From an uncultured Rickettsiales bacterium (GTDB lineage: Bacteria; Pseudomonadota; Alphaproteobacteria; Rickettsiales; CANDYO01), in assembly GCA_964550685.1 (NCBI GenBank), contig CAZJZY010000009.1:1181-65180 (forward strand): a stretch of DNA of 64,000 nt, in the 5' to 3' direction. The position numbers and the translations under genes are program-made. The notes under the pieces were generated by a model. That model was not told the DNA's origin. It saw only the letters and a list, made by a program, of their open reading frames with translations, and ran no database searches. Below are positions 51,544-55,000 of the stretch, in pieces; position 1 is the first letter of the stretch, and every line of letters begins with the position of its first letter.

Positions 51544-52023
51544 TTAGTTACCATCATAAACAACATAAGTCTCACATATTATATCGTAATATGCTTGTTT
51601 TTGAGGATGAAAGTATATAAAAAATTGCAAAAAAATGCTTAAGAATATTGCATAAATGCCCCACGACATATTAGCAATCACTGGTAATATTGGAAGTATA
51701 TATAAAATATACCTAAACAAAGAACGCTTAAGAGATATTCTGGCTCCATTCATATCTATAATTTTTATTTTCTTTTTTCTCATACCTAAAGTAGCCTGTT
51801 TACCACCAGATAAGAGTAATATATCATATAATGCATGGATAGAACTACTGGCAATAGATAAAACAGTTACCATTAAAGAATCAGCATTTTGTAGATACTG
51901 ACTAATAATATAACTGGCTAAACTTATAGGAGCAAGATATATCGTATCCCATAGTCCAGCACAAAATCTAGACCATAACCCCGCGTATATAAAATTATTA
52001 AAAGAAAGCTTATTTATTTTCAT
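51544..52023 (-). CDS. RDD-family membrane protein (159 aa)
   Basis: YAGLWSRFCAGLWDTIYL, KQATLGMRKKKIKIIDMNG and QKQAYYDIICETYVV follow the RDD landmarks. About 3-4 TM segments. Its start overlaps the upstream giant ORF by 14 nt. Confidence 0.75.
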   Translation of the reverse strand: MKINKLSFNNFIYAGLWSRFCAGLWDTIYLAPISLASYIISQYLQNADSLMVTVLSIASSSIHALYDILLLSGGKQATLGMRKKKIKIIDMNGARISLKRSLFRYILYILPILPVIANMSWGIYAIFLSIFLQFFIYFHPQKQAYYDIICETYVVYDGN

Positions 52024-55000
52024 TGTTTTGCTCGTCTACAACATAATACTTATAAATATCAGATATGCATTTATAGCGCTCATGGACCGCTGTAGCCGCT
52101 TTATATGCTATGATCGCTCCATAGGTAGGCACTATTATACGAGGATCTCTCGTTGCAAGAACAGCGTCTGTAATGATCATTTCAGATACCGCTTCTACTT
52201 CATCACCTACTACTTTATCAAAAATACACGCACTAACCGGATGTGTTAATAATGTCTTAATAAAACCTTTTGGTTTGTTCTTTTCTTTCCAGCTTTTTAT
52301 CATTTCCTCAGAGTTTAGGCGTTCTTGCTCCATCTTAGCTTTATACTCAGGTAAGTTTTCTTCTATTTCAATTTCTTTTTTCGCGTTCATTTTGTGCTCT
52401 TTCCACTCTTTATCAAATCTGGCATTCCTAATAGTTTCATCTTCGTTGGGTGATAGGTTTTCTAAATACCATATATTAGGCTTGTCACGAAAAGCAAAAA
52501 TATCAGTTAGGAATTTAAAGTCTTGGTCTTCATCAGATGATATTTTTTTTAAATTGTTATACATCCTATTAAGTATGTAATTTTTGTCTGCATCAGAAAG
52601 CTCCATAGCTTCTGTTCTCTCTTCAACCTCATTATATAACTCCATTAAATGATCTGGCAATTTACTTTTTTGTAAATTTTTATCTTGCTCTTTTTGTTTT
52701 TCTTTCTCAGGTATTCCATCTGGGCTAATTATGTCTTCATTATTTTTTGTTTTTTGCAAATCATCTACCTGATCTATCTTTAATATTTCTCCTCCTGCTT
52801 TTAATAAACTGTCTATAGATTCTAAAACATCTCCTATGGAACCTTCAATGTTTCCTACGATTCTTTCAGCTATGCCAGAAGGACCTCCGCTCCATGCTTT
52901 AGCAAATTCGTCTGAATTGACTCTTCTGAAGGTAGCGTCTAAGTACCAATTGCTTCCCTTTAGCTCCTCTAGGTTAGTTTTTCTACTGATACCAAGAAAA
53001 ACACTCATAGCTTCATCAATTTCCTGATCACCAATTATTATAACGCCATTGCCAACTGCCCCAGGTACATCGCGTTTTTGGTCCTTTTCTCCTCCTGTAA
53101 TTCTTGTGCCTACACCGAATGCGGCGTTGCCACTATCAACACCAAAGCCAGCGCCCCAACTTGTTGATTTATCCTTTAGGGTGGCGGTTTTAATACTTGC
53201 CGCTTCAACTTTTAAATTTCCATTGCTACTGTCAAGGTAAGCACCCTCCAAATAAATTAATTCACTAGACTTAACCAATAACATGTTTTTTCCAAAGAGA
53301 CCGCTTCTACCATCTCTTGTAATTTCTGAATAAGCACCATTTTTTTGACCATATATACTACCTGAAGTGAGCTTGCCTTTTGATACACCTATACTGGCAC
53401 TGAATGCTTTACCAGATTGACTGCTTGTATCTTGTTTACTCACAAGCTTTAATACATCAACAATAGCACTTAGTTCATTGGCTTCTATAGTAAGACCTCC
53501 TTCTACTTTGTCGGCATTTAGATTGAAAGCTCCACTCACAGTAATATGGTTAGTGTGCTGCCTAATGTCATGTATTTTAGCCCCATTGTAATTGATGGTG
53601 CCTCCACTACTAACGCCTCCAATAAGCCCAATTTGTCCACTAGCATCTCCATTATTTGACTTAACCATCTCTTCATCATAAGTAAAATGAGCAATAATTT
53701 CTTTTACATTAATAGTACAGTTTTTGGCTGTAAGGTCTAAGCCCTCCATATGCCAAGAAGTTCCATTTACTTCAAAATTATCGGCATTGATTATATTTGA
53801 TAAGCCCCATTTCTTAAATACGCTCATATGGCTTATGCTAGCTTCTCCAAAAGCCCACACTCCTCCCTGCACTCCATTTCCATTTGCGATATTAGTGGCT
53901 TGCATAATGGCTTTTCGACCATTGGAAACAAAATTGATTGCAGATGTTAGAGCTGGATTACTGCCACCAACATTATTAGAAATAGCTTTCATAGAGTCGA
54001 TAGTACTTCTAATGCTTTCTTGAAAACCTATTTTTATTCCATATTCAATATCTATTTGGGTTTGTTGGTAAAAACCAATAAGCATAGGCGATTCGTTAAC
54101 AATTTCTTTAGCATTAATGCTAATGTTTTTTCCTGCTAAGATGCCTCCTGATAATACCAATTTATCCGTTTTAATTTTAAGTTTATTAACAAATGCACCT
54201 GCATAAAAAGCTTTTTCAAAATAATTTTCACTTTTTACATACTTATAATAGTCAGATACTCCTAACACCAATTCTCCAGACTTAGATGAAGCAAAGAACC
54301 TCATCCCTTGCTCCTTTACTTCAAATGCACTAAAATGTTTGCCAATAGCTGCTTTAAATGTAATGCTTTTGGCTTCTAACTCCATGTCTTCTCCCATTAA
54401 ATAACTTCCTGAAAATAGAATCTCATTTTCTGAGAAAGCATAGCCTTTATCTGCAATTATGAGTGTTGCTCCATGAAAGTAATCATCGCTATCATAAGCT
54501 TTGCTGATTTTGGGGGGCTTAAAACTAAGAAAATTTCTTTTATTGCTATTAGTTTTTTGTTCTTCACTCGTTAAGGCTAGCGCTTCAAAAGTATATTGAT
54601 TAGCGTATCCATTGAAAGTTTGAGTTTCAATAAAAGCTCCTCTAGCGTATAATTTGCCTTCTAATTCTAAACTTATATTTTCACTTCTTATAACGGTAAT
54701 GTATGCTTGCTCTCCTGTTTTAGAGCCCCATTCATGACTGGATTTGCCCCGCCAATTAGGTTTTCCAATCCACTCCCAGTTTCGTATATGAGTTGCTTTC
54801 TCTGAAACTAGTTCTAAATTTTTAAGTTGCATAATTATGTTTTTAGAAAAAATTTCAGTGCTCTCTAAACGTAAATTAGGTGCTTTTATAATTAACTGAT
54901 TTGTTTTTATTATTGGCTGTTCTATACATTCATCATAATAATTATTTTTTGTTCTAGCTATATCCTCATTTCTTGTTGTACTCGTTTTCTCAGAAGCAAA

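Follow-up and report, generated by a model that had tools for sequence, protein, structure and literature searches.

A mobile C-terminal domain of giant proteins and its RDD-family membrane partner: a candidate effector/immunity cassette on a plasmid-like contig of an uncultured Rickettsiales bacterium

The 64,000-nucleotide stretch analysed here (the window; contig CAZJZY010000009.1 of assembly GCA_964550685.1, from an uncultured Rickettsiales bacterium) encodes on its minus strand a giant chimeric protein of 1728 amino acids (aa; P0001, 52010..57196) and, directly downstream, a 159-aa polytopic membrane protein of the RDD family (51544..52023, minus strand; PF06271), a candidate immunity or partner protein. 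The C-terminal domain of the giant protein (hereafter CT) is modular, consisting of a conserved helical module followed by a variable tip; it is exchanged between carrier proteins, its tip is linked to the RDD gene and diverges together with it, and both evolve under purifying selection. Comparison of loci indicates that tip and RDD gene pass together, as one unit, between three unrelated carrier bodies. We tentatively read the cassette as a mobile C-terminal effector accompanied by its membrane protector, a putative toxin/immunity pair of the polymorphic-toxin type, and we give this reading, the best of those considered, slightly less than an even chance.

Exchange of tip and RDD gene between carriers

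The open reading frames (ORFs) at 52010-57196 and 51544-52023 share 14 nucleotides (nt) at 52010..52023 on the minus strand (..AATGAAAATAAATAA), which bears out the statement of a first-pass annotation, made from the letters of the window alone, that the RDD ORF begins 14 nt inside the end of the 1728-aa gene. The identical overlap recurs in a second locus, L001, which was reached through the RDD homolog P0004, and this recurrence suggests that translation of the two genes may be coupled. Because the N-terminus MKINKL is conserved in L001 together with the overlap, the start codon assigned to the RDD gene is credible.

Nucleotide homology between the window and L001 is restricted to 52684..51548 (67% identity), which corresponds to the CT from aa 1505 onwards and the whole RDD gene, and ends at the RDD stop. 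At the protein level, identity is 52-54% between the RDD products and 55% between aa 1497-1728 of the window's giant protein and the CT of P0005, the giant protein of L001 (at least 1985 aa). The bodies of the two giants are unrelated, the sole similarity being a weak one that links aa 1240-1356 of the window protein to the P0005 filament ahead of its CT (E=4e-4 and 3e-3).

P0005 is the ortholog of P0006, a giant protein encoded elsewhere in the window's own genome. The two share 88% DNA identity over 5.5 kb and 90-95% protein identity; only ~65% identity remains within the helical module and ~25% in the tip, and DNA homology ends ~125 codons before the stop. L001 carries tip 1 and an RDD gene, and P0006 carries tip 2 with neither an RDD gene nor any other ORF downstream; since one ortholog thus has tip 1 with RDD and the other tip 2 without it, tip and RDD gene appear to be swapped as a unit. 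Tip 2, in turn, recurs on P0007 (49% identity over 287 aa), a carrier unrelated to P0006, and tip 1 sits both on P0005 and on the window's chimera with its head related to gene transfer agent (GTA) proteins, which places the CT family on at least three unrelated carrier bodies.

A third pair stands at locus L019, reached through the RDD homolog P0011, where the CT closing an ORF truncated at its 5' end shares 33% identity with the CT of P0007 (E=1.7e-14). P0011 starts 20 nt past the CT ORF behind an AGGAG ribosome-binding site, a junction that differs from the 14-nt overlap; as this spacer contains stop codons, a frameshift fusion of CT and RDD was set aside. An RDD gene therefore lies directly downstream of a CT in three loci (the window, L001 and L019). 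The pairing is more than chance, because it recurs in three loci although the whole 1.42-Mb genome has only two RDD genes, the other one, on contig C21 (1838-2461), encoding a 207-aa protein in a chromosomal housekeeping context. Tip and RDD identities drop in parallel (56/54%, 24/36% and 25/39%), and dN/dS ratios of ~0.3 for the module, ~0.23 for the tip (dN 0.41) and ~0.36 for the RDD gene, with dS near saturation, indicate purifying selection. The first-pass annotation had proposed looking for co-variation of CT and RDD across homologous loci, and the outcome is positive: a shared cassette, tip 1 with RDD as opposed to tip 2 without it, and parallel divergence.

Two smaller features lie at the edges of the cassette. 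Downstream of the RDD stop is a perfect 9-bp hairpin (51472-51502), whose folding energy is no better than that of shuffled sequence (z=-1.05) and which is not followed by a T-run; shuffling and the missing T-run rule it out as a standard intrinsic terminator, and no terminator of this type turned up. The beginning of the CT cassette, within the giant gene, holds a near-consensus sigma-70-like site (52631-52660, minus strand; TTGCCA-18-TATAAT, 11/12 consensus), whose last 12 bases (52631-52642) are the codons of the ELYN motif described below. This site could drive CT-independent expression of the RDD gene; promoter-like sites in the region are no commoner than in shuffled sequence.

A rare family of C-terminal domains

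The first-pass annotation had regarded the CT as an orphan domain starting at aa 1416, and both points require revision: the modular unit begins at aa ~1505 (nt 52684), and the CT belongs to a very rare family with six members known from searches of billions of proteins, each at the C-terminus of a giant filament-like protein. An exhaustive HMMER search with aa 1416-1728 against 1.84 billion representative proteins returned, besides the query, only P0006 (2083 aa, on contig C10 of the window's own genome), P0007 (1810 aa, the only carrier that matches Fil_haemagg_2, E=6e-8) and P0008 (1860 aa); P0005 and the L019 ORF, found through their RDD neighbours, complete the family. Five genomes of the same genus contained no member, and 400 genomes of the same order gave only chance-level matches (E >0.001). 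A word-index homolog search with the CT, its candidates limited by length and shared words, recovered the query alone, and pattern scans of genome contigs and metagenome contigs with the CT alignment found no relatives. Other sequencing runs (reads and contigs) contained the same organism at low depth in wastewater and freshwater metagenomes, with no further cassette variants. The family is rare and strain-specific.

The conserved helical module (aa 1505-1620; 52337..52684, minus strand) is common to all six members; it delimits the mobile cassette on the 5' side, and recombination between alleles takes place within it. Across the six aligned CTs, the module starts with LP(D/E)HL..(L/F)YNE and contains F..SP.IW. 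The ELYN motif within it (aa 1519-1522; 52631..52642, minus strand) resembles the Nx(E/Q)LYN of Burkholderia BcpA/CdiA: it reads (E/K/Q)(L/F)YN in all five sequences that cover the stretch, with Y and N invariant and the leading Asn of Burkholderia absent. The motif is short, and a likeness over four residues may be chance, which makes it a lead rather than proof.

The variable tip (aa 1621-1728; 52013..52336, minus strand) is predicted to be all-helical and is the candidate effector or toxin domain. Its ~110 residues diverge fast yet remain alignable in five of the six members, the pattern being two helices joined by a proline turn, the second one rich in small and hydrophobic residues, with an acidic/aromatic tail behind them. 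The helix-Pro-helix hairpin (aa 1650-1705; 52082..52249, minus strand) abounds in small and hydrophobic residues, with 46% A/G/S/V/T and 34% I/L/V/F/M, and its counterparts in tip types 2 and 3 are more hydrophobic. The K/E richness first reported for aa 1416-1728 is real: K and E together account for 22.7% of this region versus 14.6% of the rest of the protein, and for 29.8% of aa 1497-1620. Two AlphaFold2 runs were made, of which the second model, with low tip confidence, was kept out of the fold search; the CT model is all-helical, with ~10 helices and block values of the predicted local distance difference test (pLDDT) of 62-89 in the module and <50 in the tip.

The RDD protein and its relatives

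The small ORF is the RDD-family membrane protein it was first taken for: it matches PF06271 over its full length (profile positions 1-136 of 137; E=2.5e-19, 70.4 bits against a cut-off of 24.1 bits) and contains three hydrophobic stretches (aa ~20-42, 49-72 and 105-138). P0004 and P0011 are likewise PF06271 proteins. The conserved Arg and two Asp residues of the family are present in the window's RDD protein (R19, D26 and D147) and unchanged when it is aligned with the second RDD protein of the genome.

Distant RDD relatives (P0009 and P0010) lie in non-toxin contexts, and relatives of the cassette subfamily itself are also found without an adjoining CT or as fragments. Locus L020, whose GC-rich 5' end may be chimeric, holds a full RDD frame at 132-617 (45% identity) in which no start codon follows the preceding stop. 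P0012, on a contig of JGI sample 3300059473 and from the same metagenome as P0007, comprises fragments of 87 and 53 aa (62% identity) behind ankyrin genes. Such orphan or damaged copies of the cassette type fit orphan immunity genes and prove nothing. In L017, a small ORF upstream of the RDD gene was considered as a CT remnant and ruled out (hhalign probability 0.1). Both RDD proteins of the cassette, P0002 (aa 37-155) and P0004 (aa 43-147), also match weakly the last ~110 positions of PADLOC PD-T4-6 (E=1.6e-4 and 3.4e-5, respectively), and this anti-phage protein may end in an RDD-like membrane domain.

Proposed function and alternatives

If the cassette is indeed an effector with its protector, the helical module would serve as the region of homology, demarcation and recombination, and perhaps as a translocation domain, like the VENN/ELYN pre-toxin region and the entry domain of CdiA-CT. 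The tip would be an effector that acts on membranes non-enzymatically, its helix-Pro-helix hairpin entering a lipid bilayer or disturbing it, and the co-translated RDD protein, residing in the producer's inner membrane, would bind or intercept the tip and thereby guard the producer and its kin. Rival bacteria in the same host cell, or the host membrane, are candidate targets. The more specific proposal, in which this RDD subfamily would be a dedicated intramembrane immunity protein for a so far undescribed class of helical-hairpin, membrane-active toxin tips on signal-less giant proteins of host-associated alphaproteobacteria, swapped by recombination in the 'LYN' module, is possible but rather doubtful.

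The toxin/immunity pairing suggested in the first-pass annotation is strengthened by the cassette co-variation and weakened by the lack of any toxin family or fold match and by the three of six loci that have neither an RDD gene nor an evident immunity gene. The findings that weigh against it are of several kinds. Searches of the CT against Pfam (E<=1), NCBIfam, PADLOC, PDB sequences and, by Foldseek, PDB structures gave no credible match; Foldseek of the CT model against the PDB returned nothing below E=5, the colicin channel domain PF01024 matched neither in sequence (Pfam E<=1) nor in fold (Foldseek-PDB), and a match to HetR_C (E=0.005, below cut-off) was dismissed as noise. Structure models of the tip are poor (pLDDT <50). 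The hydrophobic, small-residue-rich end of the protein had been described as compatible with membrane insertion, which stands as far as the composition of aa 1650-1705 is concerned; a classical transmembrane segment is not among its features, as Kyte-Doolittle means over 19 residues stay below 1.6 throughout the giant protein and reach at most 1.17 in the tip. The two maxima of tip 1 (1.17 and 0.92) are moderate, and several of its residues are acidic; those of tips 2 and 3 (1.61 and 1.67) are higher, and borderline. Judged by hydropathy, insertion of the giant protein's end into a membrane is weakly supported.

Further points on the same side concern the family as a whole. The tips are divergent versions of one family rather than unrelated warheads, and half of the members (P0006, P0007 and P0008) have no RDD gene or recognisable immunity gene nearby; around these loci, no shared accessory, immunity or small gene was found. 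The retained R, D and D residues hint at an activity shared by RDD proteins in general, as opposed to a role in binding alone. Nor is an export route apparent, there being no signal peptide or TPS (two-partner secretion) domain on the giant protein and no transporter adjacent to the locus. As a separate observation, a very hydrophobic ORF of 98 aa on contig C10 of the same genome (7825-8121, plus strand) converges on the 3' end of the RDD-less P0006 gene; the layout recalls the opposite-strand immunity genes of pore-forming colicins, but the ORF has no homolog in the other loci, and chance ORFs are common in AT-rich DNA.

The main alternative is a non-toxic membrane complex for docking or regulation, in which the C-terminal helices of a surface-located or secreted giant protein bind a dedicated inner-membrane RDD protein that anchors, stores or regulates them; we consider it unlikely, though well worth weighing. 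It has a precedent in Bacillus subtilis, where the RDD membrane protein SppI (YteJ) binds and inhibits SppA, encoded just upstream in the same operon, in an inhibitory membrane complex (PMC7568657). As in our cassette, the RDD gene there lies directly downstream of its partner gene; unlike in our cassette, the partner is a signal-peptide peptidase rather than the tip of a giant mobile protein, and there is no cassette exchange. Such a complex would agree with the conserved family residues that the window's RDD protein retains and with the single homologous family formed by the tips, as a docking domain would predict, and the half of the carriers that lack an adjacent RDD gene might use another RDD protein of the genome, which does have a second RDD gene. 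One would not expect a structural anchor, however, to undergo allelic replacement on a filament that is otherwise 90-95% identical, with the break inside the module, or to move between three unrelated carriers, or to be so rare and strain-specific. Moreover, the module next to them evolves more slowly than tip and RDD gene, a difference that one would sooner expect in conflict systems.

A second alternative, that the CT is an export or targeting device (a signal for a type IV coupling protein or other secretion system, or a domain directed to a host membrane once an intracellular symbiont has delivered the protein) and the RDD protein an accessory or a passenger, strikes us as improbable. It leaves unexplained the coupled RDD gene in three loci and its co-divergence with the tip; the conserved module does not lie at the extreme C-terminus, the usual site of such signals, and Pfam and NCBIfam searches revealed no similarity of the CT to any known secretion-signal domain. 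What speaks for it is the setting: all carriers lack an N-terminal signal and a TPS domain, the contig that bears the gene resembles a conjugative plasmid and has an F-type tra/TraD cluster next to it, the P0008 locus is plasmid-like as well, the same plasmid encodes giant ankyrin-repeat proteins typical of host-associated bacteria, and three of the six members do without a protector gene. Finally, a genomic accident, with the RDD gene merely hitch-hiking beside giant-gene 3' ends in AT-rich mobile DNA, is barely credible: although there are just three pairs, two of them of shared ancestry, and other RDD relatives occur in unrelated contexts, the overlap is kept to the nucleotide, the edges of homology coincide with the CT start and the RDD stop, the independent third pair at L019 is joined differently, purifying selection acts on both genes, and there are two RDD genes only in the whole 1.42-Mb genome.

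Comparison with known systems

To judge from its sequence organisation, the effector/protector cassette would behave like the cassettes of contact-dependent inhibition (CDI) and polymorphic toxin systems. In Burkholderia BcpA/BcpI, the motif Nx(E/Q)LYN demarcates the CT, the start codon of bcpI lies at or ahead of the bcpA stop, and certain alleles are distinguished by their last 100-200 aa alone (PMC3415462; PMC5435912). Like BcpA-CT/BcpI and CdiA-CT/CdiI, our system has a giant, presumably filamentous carrier whose CT may be set off by a short motif, here (E/K/Q)(L/F)YN instead of Nx(E/Q)LYN; like BcpA-CT/BcpI, it has a mosaic CT, a next gene that begins at or before the stop codon, and a CT that is replaced together with the downstream gene on a conserved body. 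The window protein is nevertheless not a member of the CdiA family, as it has no Sec signal, TPS domain or adjacent CdiB/BcpB, and its middle body contains no demonstrable repeats of the filamentous haemagglutinin (FHA) type. Unlike in CDI, its N-terminus is a GTA-baseplate-like TIM barrel, the CT variants all belong to one family, half of the loci have no downstream gene, and the partner is a polytopic RDD membrane protein rather than a small soluble CdiI.

Integral-membrane immunity proteins neutralise pore-forming colicins and CdiA-CTs of the ionophore type, such as the CdiA-CT/CdiI pair of E. coli EC93. By analogy of architecture only, the cassette is like pore-forming colicins in having an all-helical C-terminal domain of ~200 aa, a hydrophobic hairpin near its end and a small polytopic inner-membrane partner. 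It is unlike them in lacking a sequence or fold match to the pore domain and in the marginal hydrophobicity of its hairpin, and colicin immunity proteins are not RDD proteins.

Polymorphic toxin systems more generally combine the same CT with unrelated architectures and alternative C-termini with one architecture (Zhang et al. 2012), and both situations occur here. A further hallmark of such systems is a cognate immunity gene that directly follows and covaries with the toxin domain; in our system, an RDD gene stands there at three of the six loci, diverging in parallel with the tip, and is missing from the other three; RDD is not among the immunity families listed by Zhang et al. (2012). Also comparable are the haemagglutinin-like toxins of Rickettsiales with CRCT/CRCA modules, which have no CdiB and of which a minority have antidotes beside them (Verhoeve et al. 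2022, 2024; PMC9111745, PMC11077975). The likeness extends to giant modular proteins in host-associated alphaproteobacteria with reduced genomes, to the lack of CdiB and to mobile C-terminal modules that enter different large carriers. CT and partner are unrelated to those of the CRCT/CRCA toxins, the partner here lies downstream and is an integral membrane protein, and RDD is not mentioned in PMC9111745 or PMC11077975.

The giant protein, its plasmid and its genome

Upstream of the CT, the window's giant protein is a chimera without N-terminal signal peptide or TPS domain. Its head (aa 269-652; 55241..56392, minus strand) matches the TIM-barrel part of the RcGTA 'megatron' (PF13547, E=4e-59; NF048004). 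Unlike the RcGTA megatron, it scores below the cut-off of NF048004 (387 versus 800 bits), covers only positions 284-760 of the 1299 of that model, and is fused to an unrelated body and a CT. It is one of four paralogs in the genome, which include a neighbouring 480-aa gene and a chromosomal gene of 1093 aa located among GTA-like genes. The latter, megatron-like and with a glycine-rich N-terminus, lies on contig C2 (96104-104579) and adjoins a few small tail- or baseplate-like genes, its neighbours having been judged by eye; it is probably the source of the plasmid TIM-barrel paralogs. In a plasmid collection searched with blastn and tblastn, only the GTA-TIM head was matched, by GTA genes of Paracoccus, Shinella and similar genera. 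If the tips are indeed membrane-active toxins, the GTA-baseplate head on one carrier would suggest a delivery route unrelated to two-partner secretion.

The middle body (aa ~653-1504; 52685..55240, minus strand) has no family match and is presumed to be filament-like; we infer a beta-helical nature for it. No FHA-type or other repeat family was detected on aa 650-1415 of P0001. No Pfam or NCBIfam match to a Sec signal or TPS domain was obtained for P0001 or for P0005-P0008, and the N-terminus of P0001 (MSTTIDLEVSD...) is not signal-like. No CdiB/TpsB gene lies beside the giant gene, whose neighbours are the GTA-TIM paralog, a GT2 synthase, a protease and tra genes. The genome does contain a canonical TpsA/TpsB pair on contig C7 (62640-67769, minus strand), whose 1145-aa TpsA has both a signal peptide and a TPS-like N-terminus and whose transporter is a ShlB-type protein of 563 aa, and two further, lone ShlB-type genes on contigs C15 and C3, which brings the total to three, none of them on the window contig. 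Because this canonical pair lies elsewhere in the genome, the giant proteins are visibly not of the TpsA/TpsB kind.

All but a small part of a 67.6-kb contig lies within the window; this contig belongs to a 96%-complete alphaproteobacterial metagenome-assembled genome (1.42 Mb, ~33% GC), whose GyrB reaches only ~60% identity to generic Alphaproteobacteria. By gene content, the contig looks like a conjugative plasmid: it encodes a MobA/MobL relaxase-helicase (2-3427), ParA (24088-24801), a DnaA_N-type protein (25450-26652) and an F-type tra block (TraF/H/G/D; traD at 46502-48319). TraD shows ~33% identity to matches on plasmids of Legionella, Rickettsia and Ca. Megaira. It also encodes UmuC, a 557-aa protein with a zeta-toxin domain (18244-19917, minus strand; E=2e-8) and a 1328-aa ankyrin-repeat protein (9293-13279, minus strand); ankyrin-repeat proteins on the plasmid point to a host-associated lifestyle. 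The P0008 locus (L007, 8815-12191) is plasmid-like too, with ParA, ParB and DnaA_N adjoining the giant gene, and because both contigs are plasmid-like, the CT-bearing giant proteins seem to be plasmid cargo. On the other side of the cassette, the next gene 3' of the RDD gene, after a gap of 276 nt, encodes a YhcG/DUF1016 nuclease of the PD-(D/E)xK type (50203-51267, minus strand; PADLOC defence candidate PDC-S02, E=8e-121); since L001 shows no homology there, this gene is not part of the cassette.

Significance

RDD proteins form a very widespread membrane family whose function has been called enigmatic, with one member reported as a cation/proton antiporter. A survey of 2025 still describes the role of the domain as unknown (PMC12419801). 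No paper in the literature searched describes an RDD protein as an immunity protein, in agreement with the first-pass annotation, and immunity would thus be a new role for a poorly understood family if the CT is indeed toxic; should toxicity and RDD-specific protection both hold true, this RDD subfamily would gain a concrete function. A genetically defined partner, the ~110-aa tip that moves and diverges with the RDD gene, provides a direct and inexpensive experimental handle on what an RDD protein binds. The cassette would also extend the logic of polymorphic toxins, in which a conserved body and a demarcation module are combined with a swappable tip and its protector, to carriers without a recognisable secretion domain. 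These carriers would reside on conjugative plasmids of bacteria with reduced genomes that are probably host-associated, in which interbacterial and host-directed weapons have been little explored.

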